Positions 6,690-62,066 of a DNA stretch of 64,000 bases are shown one piece after another (position 1 is the first letter of the stretch; the number at the start of each line of letters is the position of its first letter). The stretch comes from an archaeon (lineage in GTDB: Archaea > Aenigmatarchaeota > Aenigmatarchaeia > GW2011-AR5). The stretch covers positions 89,409-153,408 of the forward strand of contig JANQNA010000007.1 of assembly GCA_028279825.1 (NCBI GenBank). The letters are read 5' to 3'. Both the position numbers and the translations under genes were made by a program. The notes under the pieces are model-generated. The model was not told where the DNA came from, did no database searches, and was given only the letters and a program-made list of their open reading frames with translations.

Positions 6690-7674
6690 AATGTATTGGC
6701 AAGGCAAGCGCGTTTTTGTAACAGGGGCAACAGGATTTCTCGGATCCTGGATAGCCAAACAGCTCACGGAATCCGGTGCACATGTAACAGTTCTTATAAG
6801 GGATGTACCTGCTAATTCAAACTTCTTTCTTTCAGGACTGGACAAAAAAACAAACATGGTTAATGGTGATGTAAAGGATTTAGAGACCGTGTCGCGTACG
6901 CTGAATGAGTACGAGATTGATACTGTTATACATCTTGCAGCCCAGGCACTGGTAAAACCGGCTGTGAACAATCCTGTAGAGACGTTTGAGGTTAACGTAA
7001 GAGGTACATGGAATGTTCTGGAGGCTGCCAGAAGAAACAACGTGGAAAGACTTGTGATGGCTTCAAGCGACAAGGCATACGGTTCGCATGAAATTCTGCC
7101 TTATGATGAAGATGCTATGCTTAAGGGAAGGTTCCCTTATGACGTTTCAAAGTCCTGTGCAGACATGCTAGGCCAGGCGTACTTTGCAACATATGGGTTA
7201 CCTGTTGGTATCACACGTTGCGGCAATCTTTACGGTCCAGGTGATATGAATTTCAGCCGTATCGTTCCGGGTACGATGAGGTCCATTATAAAGAATGAAA
7301 ACCCTGTTATCAGGAGTGACGGGACTTTCAAGAGAGACTACTTTTTTATCAGGGACGCAGTTGACGGATACCTGACACTGGCAAAGGCACTTGACCAGCA
7401 GAACATACGTGGCCAGGCGTTTAACCTTGCACCACAAAGACCTCTGACAGTACTGGAGCTGTTCAAGAAAATGATAGAAGTTTCGGGAAAAACACACCTC
7501 GAGCCTGTAATTAAGAATGAAGCAAAGCAGGAAATAAAAGACCAATATTTGTCCAACAAGAAAGCAAAAACAGTGCTTAACTGGTCTCCAAAATTTGCTG
7601 TTGAGGAAGGATTGAAAGAAACTTTTGACTGGTATGTTAAATTCTTTGGCAGCGAATCTATAGATAGATACTAG
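6682..7674 (+). CDS. rfbG: CDP-glucose 4,6-dehydratase
   Basis: 330-aa extended SDR. N-terminus YWQGKRVFVTGATGFLGSW is typical of RfbG/DdhB. Catalytic YDVSK. 8-nt overlap with rfbF. Confidence 0.8.
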   Translation: MIEMYWQGKRVFVTGATGFLGSWIAKQLTESGAHVTVLIRDVPANSNFFLSGLDKKTNMVNGDVKDLETVSRTLNEYEIDTVIHLAAQALVKPAVNNPVETFEVNVRGTWNVLEAARRNNVERLVMASSDKAYGSHEILPYDEDAMLKGRFPYDVSKSCADMLGQAYFATYGLPVGITRCGNLYGPGDMNFSRIVPGTMRSIIKNENPVIRSDGTFKRDYFFIRDAVDGYLTLAKALDQQNIRGQAFNLAPQRPLTVLELFKKMIEVSGKTHLEPVIKNEAKQEIKDQYLSNKKAKTVLNWSPKFAVEEGLKETFDWYVKFFGSESIDRY

Positions 7675-13679: not shown

Positions 13680-14509
13680 TGGAAACCGTTCTTGTCACGG
13701 GTGACATGGGATTTATAGGGAGACACCTGGTTTCTGAATTGAAAAAGAATTTTTCTATTATCGGCCTTGGCAGGAAGCACGAGGATACTGACTACGATAC
13801 AATAGATTTTGACATCACTTCAGGCGTACCGGATGTCAAGGCAGATCACATTGTTCATCTTGCAGCAGATGTTAGATGTGATGAAAGAGAAAAAGCCTTT
13901 GGTGTTAATGTTGTCGGTACTCACAATATGCTTGAACTTGCAAAAAGGAACAATGTTAAATCTTTTGTTTTTGCCTCAACAAGCAGTGTCTACGGATTTG
14001 GAGAAAAGACCTTTAAAGAGACCGACAAACCTTTACCACATGATATTTACTCACAAACAAAGTATGAAGGTGAACTTCTTTGCAAGAAATACTCAGAATT
14101 CTTTCCGGTTGCAGTTCTCAGGTATTTCTTTCCTTATGGTGCTTCGCAAAAGAAAGACAGGTTAATAAATAGGCTTATTGACAGGGTGAAAACGAACCAA
14201 ACTATAGAACTTAATGTAGACGGGAAACCTGTGATAAATCCTGTTGCCATGTCAGATGCTGTTGCTGCAACAATGAGTTCAATGAAGCTTGAAAGTAATT
14301 TTGAGATAATAAATGTCGGCGGTGTTGAGAACGTAAGTATACTGGAAATAGTAAAACTGATAGAAAAATATACCGGGAAGTCTGCAAGTATAAAGTATAC
14401 AAAAAAGGAAGTCAGCAATATGATTGGAGACATAACAAAGGCGAAAGAAATACTTGCATTCCAGCCTAAAGTTAAAATTGAAAAGGGTATTGAAGAACTA
14501 AGCCGTTAA
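13679..14509 (+). CDS. NAD-dependent NDP-sugar epimerase/reductase (SDR)
   Basis: 276 aa. TGDMGFIGRHL and YSQTKYE. TAATG overlap with the upstream gene. Confidence 0.75.
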   Translation: METVLVTGDMGFIGRHLVSELKKNFSIIGLGRKHEDTDYDTIDFDITSGVPDVKADHIVHLAADVRCDEREKAFGVNVVGTHNMLELAKRNNVKSFVFASTSSVYGFGEKTFKETDKPLPHDIYSQTKYEGELLCKKYSEFFPVAVLRYFFPYGASQKKDRLINRLIDRVKTNQTIELNVDGKPVINPVAMSDAVAATMSSMKLESNFEIINVGGVENVSILEIVKLIEKYTGKSASIKYTKKEVSNMIGDITKAKEILAFQPKVKIEKGIEELSR

Positions 14510-16027
14510 CCATATTTTTACTGTAGAGAAGAATGATCTTGGGTTTCTTCTTGCGAATCTGAACAATCTTGATGCTTTTTCTTTATCTTCTTTGAACTGT
14601 GATCGTATACCATCCCGTCTTATTCTTTTTACTATTTCTATCGGAGTGAGACCGATTATTAACGAAAGAAGATTTCCGTAATCACAGTAATCTTTGATCT
14701 CTTTTGGGGTAAGTTTGCACCATTTCGAAGTTAACTCTATTGATTCTCTATCATAATTTCCGTCATGATCGATCCCGTAAAACTTGTCCCAGTTCAATGT
14801 TTTCGGATCTATTATACCCATTTCTATTAGCTGGTTATACAGTTCTGTACCCGGTAAAGGTACGACGGGACAGAATGTTCCGTAATCGGGTTTAATTCTT
14901 TTTATCAAACGGAACGTGTTCCAGACGTTTTCTTTTGTTTCACCAATGTTACCGATTAAGAAGAATGCTCTTGCCCTGATGACTTTCTTTACAGGCGGGA
15001 AAGTCTGCTCAAAGGATGCCACGGTTGCATCTTTTTTCATGACCTTTAGTATGTCATTATCTCCTGACTCTATCCCAATGCTCATTCCGGTACAGCCAGC
15101 CTTTCTCATTAGCTTTAACAGTTTATTTGGAATGGTTGTTGCTCTTGTTACGACACTCCATTTTATGTTGTAGTTTTTCTCAATTAGTGCGGTACATAAT
15201 TCCTCTACGAACGCATGATTCTGCCCGAAAAGATCGTCAGAGAACCAGAAAGTTTTCTTTCCGAAGTTTTCTATCAGGTAGTCGATCTCTTTCAGTATGC
15301 TTTTTGCAGATCTAGACCTGTATTTTCTTTTGTATATGACACCCGATGCACAGTAGGTACATCTGTAAATACAACCTCTGGACGAATTTATGTTGTAAAG
15401 AGGATACTTACTCATGTCGAACAAACTGTAGTCCGGCAGAGGAAGCTCATCCAGATTTTTCACAAAATCAGACGGCAATGTTCTGAACGGACTATCATCC
15501 TTTATACACAACCCGTTTACCTGTGACAGATCTCCGTTATCTTTTATTGTGCTTAACAAGTGCGGCATTACAATCTCTGCTTCGCCAATAACAACAAAAT
15601 CTATTGCCGAGTCTTTCAGAATTGCTTCCGGAACCGCGGTCGCATGATTTCCACCTATCAATATCGGGACATTTTTGTAATTGTTTTTTATCATTTCAGC
15701 GATTTTTATTGAAGGGTTATGTAAAGTAGAAAAATTGCACGCAAGTCCTATTGCATCAGGCTTATAGTCCTTTACTATCTCCAGTATTTTTTCAAATCCT
15801 GTTTTGTGCACGCCTGCGTCTATTACCCTGACTTCGTAACCAAGATTTTTCAGATGTGCACCAATTGTTGCCACGTTTGTAGGTGATGATGCCACATAAT
15901 CAGCAAAATCCATCGTTGGAGGTATTATGAAAAGAACTTTCTTGACGTCTGTTATGTCAAAGTTTTTCCTGACTACACCTATCGAGTCTACCGTCCTAGT
16001 GGTTTCCAACATTCTGAGCTCTGACAT
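14498..16027 (-). CDS. B12-binding (class B) radical SAM enzyme
   Basis: 509 aa. N-terminal B12-binding-like domain (VLFIIPP…AIGLACN). Cluster motif SSRGCIYRCTYC. Confidence 0.85.
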   Translation of the reverse strand: MSELRMLETTRTVDSIGVVRKNFDITDVKKVLFIIPPTMDFADYVASSPTNVATIGAHLKNLGYEVRVIDAGVHKTGFEKILEIVKDYKPDAIGLACNFSTLHNPSIKIAEMIKNNYKNVPILIGGNHATAVPEAILKDSAIDFVVIGEAEIVMPHLLSTIKDNGDLSQVNGLCIKDDSPFRTLPSDFVKNLDELPLPDYSLFDMSKYPLYNINSSRGCIYRCTYCASGVIYKRKYRSRSAKSILKEIDYLIENFGKKTFWFSDDLFGQNHAFVEELCTALIEKNYNIKWSVVTRATTIPNKLLKLMRKAGCTGMSIGIESGDNDILKVMKKDATVASFEQTFPPVKKVIRARAFFLIGNIGETKENVWNTFRLIKRIKPDYGTFCPVVPLPGTELYNQLIEMGIIDPKTLNWDKFYGIDHDGNYDRESIELTSKWCKLTPKEIKDYCDYGNLLSLIIGLTPIEIVKRIRRDGIRSQFKEDKEKASRLFRFARRNPRSFFSTVKIWLTA

Positions 16028-17146: not shown

Positions 17147-18646
17147 ATGTCGCATACAAAAGCAGCATTAAAAAATAGTTATAAGGTTTTTGTTCTGACA
17201 GCTGTAGCTATACTTGTTGGATATCTTTTACGTATATATCTTTCCCGTGCTTTGTCTATAGAGGATTTCGGTTTGTTTTATGCTGTTACAGCATTTGTTG
17301 CATTGTTTGTTACTTTACAGGATTTCGGTGCCGGTATATCGCTTGCAAAGTTTATTTCAGAATTCGCTGTTAAAAAACTGTATACACAAATTAAATCTTC
17401 AATACTTATCGTTCTAGTCATTCAACTTGTCATTCTTTTGATTTGTAACGCTGCAGTTTTCATTTTTGCGGATGCCATATCACTTATGTTTTTCAAAACT
17501 ATTGAGGCATCAATTGTTCTGAAACTCCTTATGTTAAGTCTGTTATTCAGTTCAGTTTTTCGTATCTTCCAGTTTACTTTTCAGGGATTTCAGAGAATGA
17601 AATTATTCGCCATCGTTGAGCCAGTTAGAATATCATTGGCATTTGTTTTGTCAGTTCTTTTGATTTACATGGGTATAATCGGTGTAGCCTATGCGTACTT
17701 TCTGGCGGCAGTCATAACAACAGTTGTTTTCTTTCTGCCTTTCCTGAAAATGTTTGACGGGTTTTTTAAAATAGAAGCAAATATGACAAAAAAACTTACA
17801 AAGAAACTTATGCTATTTGCCACACCCGTCTTTATCGGAACGGTTGCAAGTTTTGCAATACTTTACATTGATACCATAATGATTTCATTTTTCATGACAC
17901 TAAGAGATGTTGGTCTGTATCAGGTTGCAATTCCAACATCACAGTTCCTGTGGGTTTTTGTTACGACCATATCTATGGTTCTTTTCCCGATGATAACCGA
18001 ACTTTATACTAAGAAAAAAACTGAACTGGTAGGCACAAACATATCCATATTTGCCAACATTTCGTTCTTCGTTACAATACCCTTCGCTGTTATACTTATG
18101 GCGTTTCCTGAAATCATTGTTTCTTTTCTGTTCGGACACGACTATATCGGCTCTGTAGCAGCACTGAGAATACTTGTCGTAGGATCTTTGTTCTATTCAA
18201 TATTCTACCTTTTCCAGAATTCACTGATGGCAATAGGAAAGCCAACCATAAGTACAAGAATAATAATTGAAATAGCAGTTTTCAACTTTATCCTTAACCT
18301 TCTTTTCATACCTATGTTCGGAATAATTGGTGCTGCTGTGACATCTACGTTGTCTTATTTTCTGGCTTCGTTGATTTCCTACAGATACCTGAAAAAATTT
18401 GTTACATTTAAGATATCATTCGGAAGACTTGCCAGAATACTTTTATCAGCTATAATAACTGTTCTTGTTCTGCTTTTCGTAAAGGGACTTCTTGTTATGG
18501 ATAACCAAATACTTGAAGCTGTGCTGTCTTTAGTGCCTAGTTTTGCCGTGTATATAGTATTAATATTTGCAACGAAATCTGTTACAAGAAGAGATCTGGA
18601 ATATTTCAGGAAATTGGGGTTGCGTTTGCCCAGGTGGTTGGGATGA
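17147..18646 (+). CDS. wzx: oligosaccharide flippase (Wzx / MOP superfamily)
   Basis: 499 aa. About 12-14 hydrophobic helices throughout, the typical polysaccharide-biosynthesis-protein layout. Sits inside the glycan island. Confidence 0.7.
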   Translation: MSHTKAALKNSYKVFVLTAVAILVGYLLRIYLSRALSIEDFGLFYAVTAFVALFVTLQDFGAGISLAKFISEFAVKKLYTQIKSSILIVLVIQLVILLICNAAVFIFADAISLMFFKTIEASIVLKLLMLSLLFSSVFRIFQFTFQGFQRMKLFAIVEPVRISLAFVLSVLLIYMGIIGVAYAYFLAAVITTVVFFLPFLKMFDGFFKIEANMTKKLTKKLMLFATPVFIGTVASFAILYIDTIMISFFMTLRDVGLYQVAIPTSQFLWVFVTTISMVLFPMITELYTKKKTELVGTNISIFANISFFVTIPFAVILMAFPEIIVSFLFGHDYIGSVAALRILVVGSLFYSIFYLFQNSLMAIGKPTISTRIIIEIAVFNFILNLLFIPMFGIIGAAVTSTLSYFLASLISYRYLKKFVTFKISFGRLARILLSAIITVLVLLFVKGLLVMDNQILEAVLSLVPSFAVYIVLIFATKSVTRRDLEYFRKLGLRLPRWLG

Positions 18647-27162: not shown

Positions 27163-28842
27163 ATGAGGAATCGCGAGGTAGCTAATGTTCTGACGGAAAT
27201 TGCAGATCTGATGGAGATAAAGGGTGAGCTTGTTTTCAAGGTGGTTGCCATGCGCAGGGCTGCGCAGACCATAGAGTTCATGGCCAAGGATATTGATGAA
27301 GTTTACAAAAGGGGCGAACTTGACGACATTCCGGGTGTTGGCGAGGCTATTTCAAAGAAGATCGCAGATTATCTGGAACACGGAGAGTCAAAGTACCTGA
27401 AAAAGCTGAAGAAGGGTTTGCCGCCGGGATTTGATAAATTGCTTGAACTTGAAGGTGTTGGACCCAAGAAAGTTAAATTGTTCTACGAGAAGCTTAAGGT
27501 TAAGAATGTGAAAGATCTGGAGAAAGCTGTCAAAACGGGAAAGTTGAGGAAACTTCCGGGGATGAGGGAGAAAACTGAAGATAACATTCTGAGAAGCATA
27601 GAGTCTGCCAAAAGAAGAACGGGTAGAATGCTTCTTGCTGATGCGTTAGATACTGCTGACGACGTTATTAAAGAACTCAGGAATGCTTCCGTGGGGAAGA
27701 TAGACGTTGCCGGCTCTACAAGACGTGGAAAAGAGACGGTTGGTGATATAGATATACTGGTTACGTCTTCCAATCCAAAAAAGGTTATTGACAAGTTTGT
27801 CAGAATGAAGGATGTTTCCCATGTTATCGGTAAGGGTTCTACAAAGGCTTCTGTCAATCTCAAAAGCGGGCTGCAAGTGGACCTGAGAGTGCTAAAGGAC
27901 AGTGAATACGGATCGGCTCTTATGTACTTTACCGGGTCCAAGGATCATAACGTTGAGTTAAGACGAATTGCAATATCCAGGGGAATGAAACTGAGTGAAT
28001 ACGGTCTGTTTAAGGGTAAACGATTTGTGGCAGGTAAGACCGAGAAAGAGGTTTACAGGAAACTTGGCGTGAGTTATATCCCTCCGGAGTTGCGTGAGAA
28101 TCGTGGTGAGCTGGATGTGACAATACCAAAACTTGTAGAACAAAAGGATATTCGCGGTGATCTTCATATGCACACAAAATGGACTGACGGGAACAACACG
28201 ATAAAGGAAATGGCGCTGGCTGCGAAACATCTTGGGTATGATTATATTTGTATATCTGACCATTACGGTACAATGCTTATTGCTAATCCTTTGGACAGGA
28301 AAAAATTTGAAGCTCAACAGAAGGAAGTAGAAAAAGTAAGAAAGAAAGTTGATATAACAATACTCCACGGGGCTGAAGTAGATATAATGGCTAATGGTAA
28401 ACTAAATGCGCCTGATTCGCTACTTAAGAAAATGGATTTTGTTACTGCTTCACTGCATACTGCACTGAGGAAAGAAAACACGGGACGCGTTATTAGTGCA
28501 ATGCAAAATAAGTATGTTCATTCTATTGGTCATTTAACTGGCAGGCTGATAAATGTCCGCCAGGGATCAGATCTCAATTTTGGTAAAATATTTGACAAAG
28601 CCAGGGAAACAGAAACTCTCCTGGAAATAAACTGCCAGCCCGGTAGACTCGATTTAACCGACACTAGCTCAAAAGCGGCTTTGCAAGCCGGCTGCAAGCT
28701 TGTTGTCAACACTGATGCACACAGCGTTGAACAACTTTCTAATATGAAACTTGGAATTTCCGTAGCACGTAGGGCCTGGGCCAGAAAGAAAGATATTGTG
28801 AATACCTACAATCTTGACAGGCTTAGGAAACTCTTGAAATGA
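27163..28842 (+). CDS. polX: family X DNA polymerase with C-terminal PHP domain
   Basis: 559 aa. HhH motifs (IPGVGEAISKKI, LEGVGPKK), catalytic GDIDILV, and PHP motif DLHMHTKWTDG…SDH. Confidence 0.9.
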   Translation: MRNREVANVLTEIADLMEIKGELVFKVVAMRRAAQTIEFMAKDIDEVYKRGELDDIPGVGEAISKKIADYLEHGESKYLKKLKKGLPPGFDKLLELEGVGPKKVKLFYEKLKVKNVKDLEKAVKTGKLRKLPGMREKTEDNILRSIESAKRRTGRMLLADALDTADDVIKELRNASVGKIDVAGSTRRGKETVGDIDILVTSSNPKKVIDKFVRMKDVSHVIGKGSTKASVNLKSGLQVDLRVLKDSEYGSALMYFTGSKDHNVELRRIAISRGMKLSEYGLFKGKRFVAGKTEKEVYRKLGVSYIPPELRENRGELDVTIPKLVEQKDIRGDLHMHTKWTDGNNTIKEMALAAKHLGYDYICISDHYGTMLIANPLDRKKFEAQQKEVEKVRKKVDITILHGAEVDIMANGKLNAPDSLLKKMDFVTASLHTALRKENTGRVISAMQNKYVHSIGHLTGRLINVRQGSDLNFGKIFDKARETETLLEINCQPGRLDLTDTSSKAALQAGCKLVVNTDAHSVEQLSNMKLGISVARRAWARKKDIVNTYNLDRLRKLLK

Positions 28843-29809
28843 TATTATCTTCTATTTTGAATTTAACAGGCAGGAACTGCTCTATTACCCATATGTTTGT
28901 CCGTACATGATTAGTTACTTCAGCTACTTTTACTATTCCGTCGGTAAATGCGAGATATGGCAGGATTTGGTCGGCCATGTGTTCGTCAAGACATGCTCCG
29001 GTTTCACATACTTTCTTCAGGTGCTCAGCGGATTCTTTTCCTACAGTTTCAGCCGGTTTACCTTTTTCACCAAGCGATGAAGCACCTAAACGACAATTCT
29101 CATAAGTTGCATAACAAGTTAAGCAAGAGCCTGGTGAACTACTTTCGGTTTGTGCGACTTCTTTTATTCCGAAATCCGTTATTTTTGAAGCAGCTTCAGC
29201 TTGTCGCTGTGCGACACCTTCAAGGTTCTTTGAGGATACGCTGATTAATCCGTGGTTGAGAAGTTTGTCCCTATGTTTCAGGTTTATTGGCTTCAACTCT
29301 GAAGGATTTATCTTAACTTCAACTACTCCCCCACCTTTTGGATAGAAGCCGTATCGCTTTGTTTCAATTTCTATGTCTACACCTAACTTTTCTAGAAAGT
29401 AGGTGAAGACGTGACGCATGTAGTCAATACTTGGACTCCAATTCACGTGTGTACCGCCGGTTATTTTGAGAGTTGTTGGATGCTTTGCGTGTATTGACGG
29501 TAGTGCAACTGCCTGGATAACAAGAGCAATGGAACCGGCTGTTCCTATGTCAATATCATAGTGACCCCCGCCCAAGCTTCCCGGATTGAAAACAAGTTTT
29601 GTGTCACCTACTTTTGCTTCTACATCTGTATTGCAAATCTGGGCAACGGCCTTGATTGCTGCCAGATGTTGGGCCTGAATACCCGGGTTTTTCCGGTTAG
29701 CTCTAATATTTTCTATTTTACATGCCTTGCCTGTAATAGCAGAAAGAGCCACGCTTGTGCGTATTATCTGTCCCCCACCTTCACCGTGGGAACCATCTAT
29801 ACTTATCAT
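28823..29809 (-). CDS. rtcA: RNA 3'-terminal phosphate cyclase
   Basis: 328 aa. N-terminus IDGSHGEGGGQIIRTSVALSAITGK is the RtcA signature. Converges on and overlaps polX by 20 nt. Confidence 0.9.
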   Translation of the reverse strand: MISIDGSHGEGGGQIIRTSVALSAITGKACKIENIRANRKNPGIQAQHLAAIKAVAQICNTDVEAKVGDTKLVFNPGSLGGGHYDIDIGTAGSIALVIQAVALPSIHAKHPTTLKITGGTHVNWSPSIDYMRHVFTYFLEKLGVDIEIETKRYGFYPKGGGVVEVKINPSELKPINLKHRDKLLNHGLISVSSKNLEGVAQRQAEAASKITDFGIKEVAQTESSSPGSCLTCYATYENCRLGASSLGEKGKPAETVGKESAEHLKKVCETGACLDEHMADQILPYLAFTDGIVKVAEVTNHVRTNIWVIEQFLPVKFKIEDNIISRVS

Positions 29810-31041
29810 ACCCTGATCACTTCATTGTTCTTGGGTACAAACGCCTGTATTTTGAACTCATCTTCTATTGATTTGGCGAAGTCTTTGCACTCTTCACCAT
29901 GTACACAGATAACCTGTTCAGGCTTTGTTCTTCTTATTATATCGAAAAGACCGCTCTTGTCCGCATGCGCACTTAACTCCAGGTGATGTATGCTTGACTT
30001 GACTTTGTATCGTTCTTCTTCATTGTCAAATATTTTTGTTTCTGTTAACATTTTCCCGGGGCTGTCCTCGGCCAGATAGCTCGTGAATATGACACTGCAA
30101 TGCTCACAGCTCTTTATCTCGCCGAGATACCTGACGGCCGGACCGCCACCAAGCATTCCGGCAGATGAAAGAATTATAGGGTATTTCTTGACAGCTTCTT
30201 TCCTGTCACGTTCACTATGCAGGAATTTTACTTTTTGCAGGAGTTCCCGGAACTCTTTTGGGCTCCTCAAGTAACTTCCATAATCAGCTATTATTTCTGA
30301 TGCCAGTTTTGACATCCCGTCCAAAGCTATCTTGTCTGCATACTCTTTCAGAATTAATAAAACTTCCTGGGAGCGTCCAACTGCCAGGACAGGTACAAGT
30401 GCAACACCGTTGTTTGATATCGTTTCTTCAACAATATCAACCAGTTTCTTTTCTTCCAACCTTCTGTTCTCCTGTGTTCTTGTGCCGTAAGTACTTTCAA
30501 TTATTAACGTGTCAACTTTCTCAGGCAACTTGCAGCCGTTTAACAGCTTGCTCTGGCGGGTTTGTATGTCTCCTGTGTACAAAACTTTTTTCCCATTATC
30601 TAGAAGTATAGAAGAACTTCCTGGTATGTGACCTGCGTCCCATAAGCTGCAGGAAAACTCGCCTATCTTAAACTGTTCCTTATATCTGACTATTTTTGTG
30701 TTTTTGACCAGTCTCTTTACGTCTTTTTCAGAGAAAGGTACGCCAAAGCCTTCTTTCCTGGCAACCTTCATGGAATCCTTTAACAACATTGTGCCTAATT
30801 CTAGGGTTACATCGTTCATGAAAACCGGTATCTTTTCCCGCTGGGCCAAAAGAGGGGTTGCTCCTATGTGATCTAAATGTGCGTGAGAGACAATTCCCGC
30901 ATCGAATTTTTCCCGAATTGGATAAGTTGGAGGTTCGGGCTGGATCCTAACACCATAGTCCATCACAATTCTTTTCTTGTCTTCAACAAGAATTGCACTT
31001 TTTCCTATTTCGTTCCCACTGCCCAGAATTTTTATTTTCAT
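29806..31041 (-). CDS. beta-CASP / MBL-fold ribonuclease (aCPSF2-like)
   Basis: 411 aa. HAHLDHIG and beta-CASP-type downstream motifs (…ESTYG…, …HGE…). 4-nt overlaps with both neighbours. Confidence 0.85.
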   Translation of the reverse strand: MKIKILGSGNEIGKSAILVEDKKRIVMDYGVRIQPEPPTYPIREKFDAGIVSHAHLDHIGATPLLAQREKIPVFMNDVTLELGTMLLKDSMKVARKEGFGVPFSEKDVKRLVKNTKIVRYKEQFKIGEFSCSLWDAGHIPGSSSILLDNGKKVLYTGDIQTRQSKLLNGCKLPEKVDTLIIESTYGTRTQENRRLEEKKLVDIVEETISNNGVALVPVLAVGRSQEVLLILKEYADKIALDGMSKLASEIIADYGSYLRSPKEFRELLQKVKFLHSERDRKEAVKKYPIILSSAGMLGGGPAVRYLGEIKSCEHCSVIFTSYLAEDSPGKMLTETKIFDNEEERYKVKSSIHHLELSAHADKSGLFDIIRRTKPEQVICVHGEECKDFAKSIEDEFKIQAFVPKNNEVIRV

Positions 31042-54536: not shown

Positions 54537-54588
54537 AATAATTACATTTAATGTTAACTTTAAATAGACTTTGTATAAGTTACACGCC

Positions 54589-55554
54589 ATGTTAACACAG
54601 ACTGTAACAAGAAACTGGAAGATGTACAATCACGCCCAAACGGAAGAAAAACTCCTTGCTATGAGACTAATCAGCCACGCTATAGATTACATGGAATTCC
54701 CTTACGAGTACAAGGGAACAGGCAGGCCTTCAATCTACGTGACAGACATGATAAAATGCTGTATATTCAAGGTGTTTAATAACTTCTCATCGAGGAGAAC
54801 AATTTGTGATATCAAGTTGGCTCACGCTTTAGGGTATATAGATCATGTTCCTCACTTCAACACGGTAAACAACTACATGTCAAAAGAGGTTATAACTCCC
54901 CTCCTCCACAGGGTTTACAAAATTCTAGCTCTCCCTTTTGGTGATGTAGAGACCACGTTTGCTATCGATGCTTCGGGATTTTCTAACCTGCGCAAAAACA
55001 ACTGGATAGATTACAGAACCCAGAAAAAACGTATAGCTGGTTGGAAGAAACTCCACATCGTAACTGGGGTTAACACTACCATCATAGCCTCAGCAACTGT
55101 TAGTGAAGGAAAAAGAAACGACACTCTGTACTTTGATTCTCTAATCAGACAAACTGCAAAAGAATTCAGAGTGTTGGAAGTGTTAGCTGACCCTGCCTAT
55201 CTATCCCGTAACAACTGCAACACAGTTGAGGATGTAGGAGGGCGGCCTTTTATTCTTCCAAAATCCAATATCAGGTTAAGGTCTCTTCAAGCTTACAGTA
55301 GAGCACGGGCATGGAAAAAGATGATAAAAGTCTGGCGTGATAACCAACAGTTCTTCCTGGAAAAATACCACAAAAGAAGCAATGTAGAGTCCGCTTTCAG
55401 TTCCATGAAAAGGAAATTTTTACCTTACACTCGCAGCAAAAACGACACAGCCCAAACAAACGAGATCCTCATGAAGGTCATCTGTCATAACGCATCCATT
55501 CTTTGTAACGCTTTTTTCGAGCTCGGGATTAAATTCGAGCTAAAAAAGGTCTAG
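54589..55554 (+). CDS. DDE transposase, IS4 family signature
   Basis: D (FAIDASGFS), D (VLADPAYLS), and an exact Y-x2-R-x3-E-x6-K in KYHKRSNVESAFSSMK. The track start is TTG 54571, with ATG options at 54589 and 54622. The stop codon lies within the right terminal repeat. Confidence 0.85.
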   Translation: MLTQTVTRNWKMYNHAQTEEKLLAMRLISHAIDYMEFPYEYKGTGRPSIYVTDMIKCCIFKVFNNFSSRRTICDIKLAHALGYIDHVPHFNTVNNYMSKEVITPLLHRVYKILALPFGDVETTFAIDASGFSNLRKNNWIDYRTQKKRIAGWKKLHIVTGVNTTIIASATVSEGKRNDTLYFDSLIRQTAKEFRVLEVLADPAYLSRNNCNTVEDVGGRPFILPKSNIRLRSLQAYSRARAWKKMIKVWRDNQQFFLEKYHKRSNVESAFSSMKRKFLPYTRSKNDTAQTNEILMKVICHNASILCNAFFELGIKFELKKV

Positions 55555-60651: not shown

Positions 60652-60897
60652 TCAGCGAACCATGTCATATGCGGCAAGTGCACTCTCACGTGTTACGTGG
60701 CCTACCATTCTTCCTGGTGTGCCCGCCAACAGGAAGTAATAGCTGGGTTGATTGTTTTGCTGAAGAAGTTCTAAATCCCTGTCAGCCTGTTCCATTGAGC
60801 TAACCAACCCTATACCAAATCCAAACATATTTGGTACGCTGAATGCAATCCCAAGAGACAATGCTATAGGTTTTACAAACCCTCTGTATCCTGGCAT
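60652..60897 (-). CDS. small hypothetical membrane-associated protein
   Basis: 81 aa from ATG 60897. The longer track ORF runs into the tRNA-Cys gene. Confidence 0.4.
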   Translation of the reverse strand: MPGYRGFVKPIALSLGIAFSVPNMFGFGIGLVSSMEQADRDLELLQQNNQPSYYFLLAGTPGRMVGHVTRESALAAYDMVR

Positions 60898-60928
60898 GTG
60901 AATATGATATAAGAAAAATATAAGAAAG

Positions 60929-61032
60929 TGGGTCAGGGCAGAATTGAACTGCCTATCTCCGCCTTGTAAGGGCGGCATTTAGTCGATAGACGGGCTGCAC
61001 CCGTCAGTCTCATACCGGTAGACCACTGACCC
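60929..61032 (-). tRNA. tRNA-Cys (GCA) with a ~30-nt insertion between anticodon arm and T arm
   Basis: Acceptor GGGTCAG/CTGACCC plus A. D arm GTCT…AGAC. Anticodon arm GACGG-GTGCAGC-CCGTC. T arm GGCAG-TTCAATT-CTGCC. 35 nt (TATCGACTAAATGCCGCCCTTACAAGGCGGAGATA) sit where a ~5-nt variable loop is expected. Confidence 0.75.
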
Positions 61033-61033
61033 T

Positions 61034-61348
61034 TTACTGAACAACAACTGCTGTGCCGTAAACCAGGACTTCTGATGCTGCCTGTGCTATCTGCGAGGTT
61101 GTTACTCTGACGCCGACTATTGCGTTTGCGCCTTTCTTCTTTGCCTCTTTTTCCATTCTTTTTATTGCTAACTCTCTTGCCTCTGTAAGCAGTTTTGTAT
61201 ATTCGTCAACTTCTCCGCCTACAATATTCCTGATTCCGGCTACAAGATCTCTTCCGATATTTTTCGCCTTTACTGTGTTACCCTTGACGAGTCCTATTGT
61301 CTTTTTTGTCTTCTTTCCTGCCACAGTTTCTGTGGTTACTATATACAT
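61034..61348 (-). CDS. YbjQ/UPF0145 family protein
   Basis: 104 aa from ATG 61348. MYIVTTETVAGKK…GANAIVGVRVTTSQIA…VLVYGTAVVV is typical for the family. The track extension to 61465 overlaps tRNA-Ser. Confidence 0.8.
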   Translation of the reverse strand: MYIVTTETVAGKKTKKTIGLVKGNTVKAKNIGRDLVAGIRNIVGGEVDEYTKLLTEARELAIKRMEKEAKKKGANAIVGVRVTTSQIAQAASEVLVYGTAVVVQ

Positions 61349-61362
61349 TCTATCACCCTGAG

Positions 61363-61494
61363 CGCTGGGAGAGGGAAATTCCCAGACGACGAATATCGTC
61401 AATCTGTTTTGAACCCACGCTTCCCCGGAGGGAAACAGGTTTAGCAAACCTGCGCCTTTAGCCATTTCCGCTATTCCGTCTCGGCCATCCCAGC
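61363..61494 (-). tRNA. tRNA-Ser (GCU) with insertions in the D loop (~15 nt) and T loop (~31 nt)
   Basis: Acceptor GCTGGGA/TCCCAGC plus G. D arm GCCGAGACGG[AATAGCGGAAATGGC]TAAAGGC. Anticodon arm CAGGT-TTGCTAA-ACCTG. Long variable arm TTTCCCTCCGGGGAAGC. T arm GTGGG-TTCAAA[…31 nt hairpin…]T-CCCTC, with one U-U mismatch. Confidence 0.7.
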
Positions 61495-61587
61495 TTGTGG
61501 TTTGATTGATTTTAGATTTGGATTACATGCTTAAAAACACAACGAAAAACTTATTTTAAAAGGTATACTATGTATTCTTAGCTGAAT

Positions 61588-61678
61588 GCTCCGTTCGTCT
61601 AGCCCGGTCAACTAATACAGACCGTAAGGATCTCGGCCTTTCAAGCCGGTGGCGCGGGTTCAAATCCCGCACGGAGCA
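61588..61678 (+). tRNA. tRNA-Glu (UUC) with a ~16-nt insertion in the D loop
   Basis: Acceptor GCTCCGT/ACGGAGC plus A. D region GTCTAGCCCGGTCAA[CTAATACAGACCGTAA]GGAT. Anticodon arm TCGGC-CTTTCAA-GCCGG. T arm GCGGG-TTCAAAT-CCCGC. Confidence 0.75.
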
Positions 61679-61775
61679 CTTTCGGATTTGAACCTTCGGG
61701 TTCACGTTCGATTGAGCGAAGCTCATCGACGGCTCGAAGAACACAGTTCTTCGCAGCAATCCCGCACGGAGCACT
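61663..61775 (+). repeat. 18-nt direct repeat of the tRNA-Glu 3' end flanking a 77-nt three-hairpin insert
   Basis: AATCCCGCACGGAGCACT occurs at 61663-61680 and 61758-61775. Hairpins between them: TGAACC-TTCG-GGTTCA (61689-61704), TCGATTGAGC-GAA-GCTCATCGA (61708-61729) and CGAAGAAC-ACA-GTTCTTCG (61735-61753). Confidence 0.85.
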
Positions 61776-61808
61776 CATAATTAAAAATAGATGGGAAAGA
61801 AAAAATTA

Positions 61809-62066
61809 CTAAATTAGTTTTTGCCCGTCTTTCAGGATGTGTATAACGTTTACAGGGCAGCTTTCTGCGGCTGTCTTGTTCTTTTCATAATCTTCGTCTT
61901 TGATGTCCAGCTCTTCTTTTATGATTTCACCGCCTTCTTCTGTACGTTTTCCACCCTTTATGTCGGATTTTCCGTCAGGGTCCATTTCCCAGAATTCCGG
62001 TGCTACTGCGGCACATGCTCCACATCCTATACAATTAGGTCTGTCGTGTTCTATCTTGTATGCCAT
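61809..62066 (-). CDS. single-cluster [4Fe-4S] ferredoxin
   Basis: 85 aa. CIGCGAC…CP gives four Cys ligands. Confidence 0.85.
   Translation of the reverse strand: MAYKIEHDRPNCIGCGACAAVAPEFWEMDPDGKSDIKGGKRTEEGGEIIKEELDIKDEDYEKNKTAAESCPVNVIHILKDGQKLI

Follow-up and report, generated by a model that had tools for sequence, protein, structure and literature searches.

Three clustered tRNA genes with putative short introns at non-canonical sites in a member of the Aenigmatarchaeota

The tRNA gene cluster and its detection

The stretch of DNA analysed here (the window; 64,000 nucleotides (nt) of contig JANQNA010000007.1 from an aenigmatarchaeal genome) contains three transfer RNA (tRNA) genes within positions 60929-61678. 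The tRNA-Val(UAC) gene ("gene A"; tRNA-Cys in a preliminary description of the region) lies at 60929-61032 on the minus strand and specifies a 104-nt precursor. The tRNA-Ser(GCU) gene (61363-61494, minus strand; 132-nt precursor) is interrupted by two putative introns, and the tRNA-Glu(UUC) gene (61588-61678, plus strand; 91-nt precursor) by one. Acceptor stems, anticodon arms and T arms are visible in all three sequences when positions 60700-61900 are read on both strands. Judged from sequence and orthologues, the locus is very probably a cluster of three functional tRNA genes carrying four short introns of the protein-spliced archaeal type at non-canonical positions. None of the four inserts is at position 37/38, as had been noted in the preliminary description, and its general view that these are genuine archaeal tRNA genes bearing several non-canonical introns is retained, for a lineage of DPANN type.

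With the inserts left in, ARAGORN at default settings called no tRNA in the whole 64 kb. Rfam returned a single partial tRNA match at the gathering threshold (61613-61670, within tRNA-Glu) and, at a relaxed threshold, a 26-bit match across the tRNA-Val locus. After removal of the inserts, default ARAGORN called Val(tac), Ser(gct) and Glu(ttc) with lengths of 74, 86 and 75 nt. It was thus confirmed that three tRNA genes lie in the interval, that each is called only when the extra sequence is taken out, that in silico splicing gives the mature lengths stated earlier and that standard callers overlook the genes. The intron search of ARAGORN, which had been recommended as a check, failed in this role: like lowered thresholds, it yielded only false calls, for example a tRNA-Phe(aaa) over tRNA-Val and 26 low-score calls in the window. 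No tRNA beyond the three was detectable in the 64 kb with default ARAGORN or with Rfam, its relaxed threshold included. Scanning the region for bacterial promoters and terminators was uninformative, the host being archaeal.

Orthologous clusters in related genomes

The proteins encoded in the window are typically archaeal (CDC48, Lhr helicase, PolX, RadB, aminoacyl-tRNA synthetases and four pyruvate:ferredoxin oxidoreductase subunits). The alpha subunit of the oxidoreductase, encoded 1.6 kb from tRNA-Val, is 58-64% identical to its counterparts in Candidatus Aenigmatarchaeota UBA10154 (locus L003) and archaeon GW2011_AR5 (AR5; L005). The adjacent PRC-barrel protein has 190 relatives, and those with names are mostly from Aenigmatarchaeota or Aenigmarchaeota; the closest one (98% identity) is from GCA_964432525.1 (L007), which also has the gene order in common with the window. 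These relationships place the host among DPANN archaea of the Aenigmatarchaeota type. In all relatives this tRNA cluster comes before the PRC-barrel gene, with the Glu gene on one strand and the Ser and Val genes on the other. This cluster stands beside the PRC-barrel and pyruvate:ferredoxin oxidoreductase genes in UBA10154, AR5, GCA_964432525.1 and many metagenome contigs.

Intronless orthologues were found for Glu and Ser in AR5, for Ser in L020 and for Val in L011, where the Val(UAC) gene has 72 nt; the partial Val gene of L032 is without a 37/38 insert. Since the inserts are absent from orthologous genes, they are true insertions and not unusual arms. The intronless Glu and Ser genes of L005 and L020 define the exon junctions of these two tRNAs, and the L011 gene defines the mature form of tRNA-Val.

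Other relatives carry introns at other sites. Val introns are located in the D loop (L005, L007, L012, L015, L016), at 37/38 (L003, L007, L012-L014, L017, L020, L027) and at 53/54 (L027). Ser introns are in the D loop in L003, L014 and L027 and at 37/38 in L003; Glu introns are in the D loop in L011 and L027 and at 37/38 in L003 and L020. Genomes with PRC-barrel proteins of about 90% identity still differ in their combinations, and the Ser gene of the nearest relative, L007, is without the T-loop intron. As the relatives are intronless or have their introns elsewhere, the inserts of the window are recent and variable insertions. We infer that introns of these tRNA genes are gained and lost fast in this lineage. 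On the evidence of the compared genes, the four introns of the window are lineage-specific states of a fast-changing system and not a rare event; the rarity implied earlier by the high intron density is not borne out, since each sampled relative has introns in these genes.

Local tandem duplication of the D arm was also considered as the source of the D-arm introns. On visual inspection it seemed suggestive in L007, L016 and the window, but it was weak in local alignments against shuffled sequences (p=0.08, 0.013 and 0.16, respectively); this origin is not claimed.

The putative introns of tRNA-Glu and tRNA-Ser

The bulge-helix-bulge (BHB) geometry was coded as a central helix (H) of 4 bp flanked by 3-nt bulges, with the cut after the second bulge nucleotide; bulges are given below in brackets, with the cut as a bar. 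The rule reproduced the expected products of four canonical 37/38 introns in L003 and L005. Applied to the 80-nt D-loop intron of the L003 Ser gene, it predicted a product equal to the intronless L005 sequence. Junctions were evaluated by shuffling the intron (shuffle p) and by counting the equally good position pairs within the precursor.

The Glu intron (61611-61626, plus strand) consists of 16 nt (ACUAAUACAGACCGUA) in the D loop between positions 20b and 21. Its junction forms a strict 3-4-3 BHB, ccCGGU[CA|A]cu...agACCG[UA|A]gg, with H=4 and flanking helices of 2 bp each (shuffle p=0.003). The D arm left after splicing, GUCUAGCCCGGUCAAGGAU, is identical to that of intronless orthologues, and the exons match the intronless AR5 Glu gene at 69 of 75 positions. 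The 16-nt D-loop insert reported for tRNA-Glu(UUC) thus has a junction that matches the intronless orthologues.

Both inserts reported for tRNA-Ser(GCU), 15 nt in the D loop and 31 nt in the T loop, were found, and the identity of the tRNA follows from its orthologues and the ARAGORN call. The 31-nt intron (61377-61407, minus strand) interrupts the T loop at 59/60 and contains the hairpin CAGA-TT-GACGA-TAT-TCGTC-G-TCTG as described. Its boundaries form the BHB UUCA[AA|A]cagau...gucugGGAA[UU|U]ccc with H=3/4, an outer helix of 3 bp provided by the T stem and an inner helix of 5 bp; the shuffle p is 0.0065, and among the 4075 position pairs of the precursor just 2 do as well. Splicing gives the T arm GUGGG-UUCAAAU-CCCUC. 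In both the Glu D loop and the Ser T loop the BHB thus falls exactly at the junction set independently by homology, and their assignment as spliced introns is well supported by the sequences.

The other Ser insert (61465-61479, minus strand; 15 nt, ACGGAAUAGCGGAAA) lies in the D loop after position 15, and its removal leaves GAGUGGCUAAA, a normal Ser D loop. The motif at this junction is a weak mini-BHB, GCCG[AG|A]c...gCGGA[AA|U], with H=3/4 and flanking helices of 0 and 1 bp. The Ser gene of L014 has a 45-nt intron with the same 5' site and a well-formed BHB, GCCG[AG|C], with an inner helix of 9 bp. Splicing of the window insert by way of a minimal relaxed motif, at the site of the well-formed L014 intron, is plausible.

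By analogy with the known archaeal pathway, splicing would proceed in three steps. The exon-intron boundaries of the precursor would fold into a BHB or relaxed BHB, the splicing endonuclease EndA would cut after the second nucleotide of each 3-nt bulge, and an RtcB-type ligase would join the exons and circularise the intron.

A gene for RtcA, the RNA 3'-terminal phosphate cyclase (Pfam RTC, E=5e-82), is present in the window at 28823-29809 (minus strand), directly downstream of a beta-CASP/RMMBL RNase gene; the two together occupy 28823-31041. Both are RNA-end-processing genes; RtcB and EndA do not adjoin them.

The tRNA-Val gene

The first 23 nt and the anticodon arm of tRNA-Val are identical to those of the L003 Val gene, and its T arm is the same as in L012 Val. 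The anticodon arm, CCGCC-CUUACAA-GGCGG, has a 7-nt loop on a 5-bp stem; it is followed by a variable loop of 5 nt (AGAUA), and the discriminator is A73. Exon matches were found at the syntenic position in L003, L007, L005, L011 and others. All the syntenic genes (14 distinct sequences from 20 loci) are Val(UAC), with acceptor stem, D arm and anticodon arm alike or close variants. The gene is assigned to tRNA-Val(UAC) because its exons, anticodon arm and T arm match these syntenic genes. GUA and GUG codons are common in the genes of the window (135 in six open reading frames (ORFs)), so a tRNA of the Val(UAC) type is needed.

The preliminary description had read this gene as tRNA-Cys(GCA) with the anticodon arm GACGG-GUGCAGC-CCGUC and an intron of about 30 nt between the anticodon stem and the T stem. 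Removal of UAUCGACUAAAUGCCGCCCUUACAAGGCGG does give a 74-nt cloverleaf which ARAGORN calls Cys(gca), and its anticodon loop has U33 and G37, as in archaeal tRNA-Cys. The misreading arose because the Val and the Cys readings both lead to a 74-nt cloverleaf. The syntenic genes are Val(UAC) throughout, however, and the discriminator is A73 and not U73, which is a major identity element of tRNA-Cys. Moreover, there is no BHB at the Cys junction (H=2, no flanking helices, shuffle p=0.52), and the GGGUGCAGCCC hairpin is absent from 28 of the 28 relative loci examined. The Cys identity is thus highly improbable. From these comparisons, the GACGG-GUGCAGC-CCGUC hairpin belongs to the Val insert, and the insertion site is at 25/26 or in the D loop, not between the anticodon stem and the T stem. 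More improbable still is alternative splicing of the precursor, which has two hairpins resembling anticodon arms, into a Val and also a Cys tRNA.

The Val insert can be delimited in two ways. It may comprise the 30 nt between C25 and G26 (60977-61006, minus strand), which hold the hairpin GACGGG-UGCAG-CCCGUC, a mimic of a Cys anticodon arm. The product would be a 74-nt tRNA, ...GGUAUGAGAC-GCCGCC..., with G26 and a perfect 4-bp D stem, GUCU/AGAC. In its minimum-free-energy fold the precursor forms a cloverleaf with an extra hairpin and a 13-nt single strand. On the strength of the perfect cloverleaf we tentatively place the splice sites at 25/26, at a confidence a little short of even.

Alternatively, the intron may be the 30 nt in the D loop (60982-61011, minus strand) bounded by the BHB CGGU[AU|G]agac...gucuAUCG[AC|U], which would give the product ...GGUAU-UAAAUGCC... 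with the mature D loop ACCGGUAUU. Among the BHBs that the Val precursor can form this alone is good, with H=4, an inner helix of 4 bp and a shuffle p of 0.0007. Its design is like that of the Glu intron (CGGU[CA|A]...ACCG[UA|A]) at nearly the same site, and it matches the Val D-loop introns of L007 and L015 (CCGG[UA|N]...C(G/A)GG[A(A/U)|A]), also at nearly the same site. The conformation with the central helix is 2.3 kcal/mol above the minimum free energy, and 6.6 kcal/mol above it when both helices are enforced. The D stem of the product, GUCU/AAAU, would be weak (U13-A22, a C12-A23 mismatch, U11-A24 and G10-U25), although a DPANN tRNA with a one-base-pair D arm is on record (PMC3239211). On the other hand, this splicing removes AGAC and with it the perfect GUCU/AGAC stem, and in the minimum-free-energy fold AGAC is base-paired to GUCU of the exon. 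The 3' exon would start with UAAAU, which differs at 4 of 5 positions from the AUGAC conserved in all relatives, and of the 2675 position pairs in the precursor about 10 reach an equal score. Splicing at the D-loop BHB is therefore a possible but rather doubtful alternative to removal at 25/26.

Several observations weigh against a cluster of three functional, protein-spliced genes, among them the loss of the GUCU/AGAC stem just mentioned. No BHB is formed at Val 25/26 (H=3/4, h=0, h'=0, shuffle p=0.41), and other registers and constrained folds likewise gave none. The Ser D-loop motif has a shuffle p of 0.017, yet 1294 of 4075 position pairs in the precursor are as good, so it is not above chance. 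The spliced tRNA-Ser has a U50-U64 mismatch in its T stem (GUGGG/CCCUC) where the relatives have A50-U64. EndA and RtcB were not found among the 30 window ORFs scanned, a set that includes few ORFs of the 1-24 kb sugar-biosynthesis cluster. Of the BHB-like structures expected at the junctions, those in the Glu D loop and the Ser T loop are present, that in the Ser D loop is weak and that at Val 25/26 is missing.

If the Val insert is nevertheless removed at 25/26, the aenigmatarchaeal splicing endonuclease or another activity would have to accept a substrate outside the known range of BHB, hBH, HBh' and BHL motifs, which we regard as unlikely. Recognition there may involve the hairpin one nucleotide past the 5' site together with an open 3' site. 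No copy of the window's Val insert was found in closer relatives among the many Val(UAC) genes of 11 contigs, one genome and one metagenome. The Val D-loop inserts of L005, L008, L012 and L016 (35-52 nt, the common AR5 type) likewise form no BHB at the junction that the intronless orthologue demands; their exon-intron boundaries are opposed in one continuous helix (CAUCU:AGAUG). The problem of relaxed recognition posed by the window Val gene thus recurs in relatives.

At least one of the loci, with Val the foremost candidate, might also be a decaying pseudogene which retains its insert while a functional copy resides elsewhere in the genome. The Val gene without a BHB at its functional junction, and the T-stem mismatch and weak D-loop motif of Ser, would fit this explanation, and the stretch inspected is 64 kb of a 248-kb contig. 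However, all stems of the three spliced tRNAs are intact save the one U-U pair, and each tRNA keeps its conserved T loop, anticodon loop and discriminator. In the Val T stem, the differences from L007 are paired changes that keep the pairing (GGCAG/CUGCC vs GGAGG/CCUCC). Other tRNAs were not detected in the 64 kb, and DPANN genomes usually have single-copy tRNAs, which also counts against pseudogenes. Finally, two junctions have significant BHBs, which pseudogenes would have no reason to keep. We therefore consider decay of one or more of these loci quite improbable; that the Val locus in particular is non-functional is improbable to a somewhat lesser degree.

Relation to known systems

The kind of gene found here is already known: tRNA genes with non-canonical introns occur in DPANN archaea and Thermoproteales, and the window adds another case. 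No description of such introns specifically in Aenigmatarchaeota was found in the literature. The splicing endonucleases of DPANN archaea have been linked to more disrupted tRNA genes (PMC5829648, PMC3239211), in particular the EndAs with an L3 loop, and for new DPANN genomes the prediction of tRNA sets is reported to be incomplete (PMC5829648).

In ARMAN-2, the source of the tRNA with the one-base-pair D arm, introns have been described at 59/60 and 53/54 (PMC3239211). The window resembles this system in its DPANN host, in the short T-loop intron at 59/60 of tRNA-Ser, in the presence of multiple introns per gene and in the occurrence of relaxed motifs; in both, default ARAGORN or tRNAscan searches miss genes. 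It differs from ARMAN-2 in belonging to another phylum, and its 59/60 intron closes both bulges with helices and does not form an open hBH. The EndA of ARMAN-2 is of the three-unit epsilon2 type.

The tRNA-Glu(UUC) gene of Methanopyrus kandleri has a D-loop HBh' intron together with a canonical intron (PMC5829648). It shares with the window gene the isoacceptor and a D-loop intron near position 21, which is removed there by EndA. The window Glu gene, in contrast, has a strict 3-4-3 BHB, an intron of only 16 nt and no 37/38 intron, and M. kandleri is a hyperthermophilic euryarchaeon, unlike the mesophilic-type DPANN host of the window.

Thermoproteales have up to three introns per tRNA gene, at many different non-canonical sites. 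A model of intron gain and transposition has been put forward for their multi-intron tRNA genes (PMC3239211, PMC4390854). The genes studied here are similar in that related introns occur in different tRNAs (the 37/38 introns of the L003 Val, Glu and Ser genes share a motif) and in the fast turnover between relatives; they differ in belonging to another superphylum and, for the window, in introns close to the lower size limit (15-31 nt). The four inserts of the window could not be shown to be paralogous to one another.

Upstream of tRNA-Glu, the UBA10154-type genomes contain one or two extra tandem units of 57 nt (L003 5482-5660, L019 2956-3191). The tRNA's first 12 nt (GCUCCGUUCGUC) open each unit, and the spacer is similar to the 37/38 introns that the same genome carries in its Val, Glu and Ser genes, with the motif AACCCUUU...GAAAAG...CGGAAA in common. 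The L003 and L019 units suggest that a related intron family may be spreading between tRNA genes.

The same three orthologous genes with different intron sites in close relatives constitute a compact natural data set for the study of the speed of intron gain, loss and movement. The data also bear on the substrates which the DPANN endonuclease has to be able to cut, and the Val precursor offers a concrete substrate for testing this because the BHB rules and the logic of the cloverleaf disagree there.

The ybjQ gene and annotation of the locus

A ybjQ gene (UPF0145; 61034-61348, minus strand; 104 amino acids; Pfam YbjQ_1, E=3.7e-37) is wedged between the Ser and Val genes. Its start codon is 14 nt past the 3' end of Ser and its stop codon 1 nt before the 5' end of Val; it is preceded by a Shine-Dalgarno-like motif, GGUGAU. 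In L003, L005 and L007 the Ser-Val gap measures 3-7 nt and contains neither an ORF nor ybjQ, and the gene was therefore inserted into the tRNA operon. Processing of the tRNAs would release the ybjQ mRNA. The nearest homologues are mostly bacterial (Planctomycetota and others); ybjQ could not serve to anchor synteny, because the homologue closest to it (74% identity) stands in an unrelated context.

The spurious ORFs reported over the tRNA loci were confirmed. The public protein P0001 (of the ybjQ cluster, from this contig) has 143 amino acids and runs across tRNA-Ser, while the real gene has 104; the mechanical ORFs 60652-60978 and 61568-61774 cover Val and Glu, respectively. In Aenigmatarchaeota, standard callers miss essential tRNA genes, and ORF callers put false or over-extended proteins in their place. 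Hidden tRNA genes of this sort call for caution with tRNA counts and with claims of "missing tRNA" in DPANN genomes.

The element downstream of tRNA-Glu and other features of the window

A structured spacer with a repeat follows tRNA-Glu at 61680-61774 (plus strand), outside the introns. The spacer of 78 nt folds as a four-way junction with three hairpins and the closing helix GGAUU:AAUCC, and the repeat (61758-61774) is an exact copy of the final 17 nt of the tRNA-Glu locus. AR5 has a counterpart (L005 about 6915-7011, minus strand), in which the first 50 nt are nearly identical and the third hairpin shows 6 compensatory pair changes. In both the window and AR5, the repeat matches the tRNA 3' end of its own genome (C vs U at nt 65). 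The element is absent in L003, L011, L020 and L027.

The possibility that the second copy of the Glu 3' end is the genuine 3' exon of an intron in the T loop was rejected, as no consistent BHB was obtained for the window or AR5. An att remnant of a mobile element was likewise rejected, with no match in IMG/VR, phage and plasmid collections, and Rfam gave only a chance-level RtT match (12.8 bits). In the tyrT operon of E. coli, the downstream rtT repeats each contain the 3' end of tRNA-Tyr. The element at 61680-61774 is comparable in so far as a 3'-terminal tRNA segment is repeated downstream after a spacer. There is no sequence relationship to rtT, however, and the window has a single repeat after a 78-nt four-way junction that is conserved in AR5.

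A 327-amino-acid ORF (54571-55554, plus strand) which by sequence alone resembles an IS-type transposase separates the HEAT-repeat and oxidoreductase genes from the upstream region. At about 1-24000 there is a long ORF cluster whose translations, read by eye, have the look of sugar-nucleotide, glycosyltransferase and radical-SAM proteins. The only two of its ORFs checked against Pfam were a Polysacc_synt flippase (17147-18646) and a B12-binding radical SAM protein (14498-16027); the cluster looks like one for ordinary biosynthesis of cell-envelope polysaccharide.

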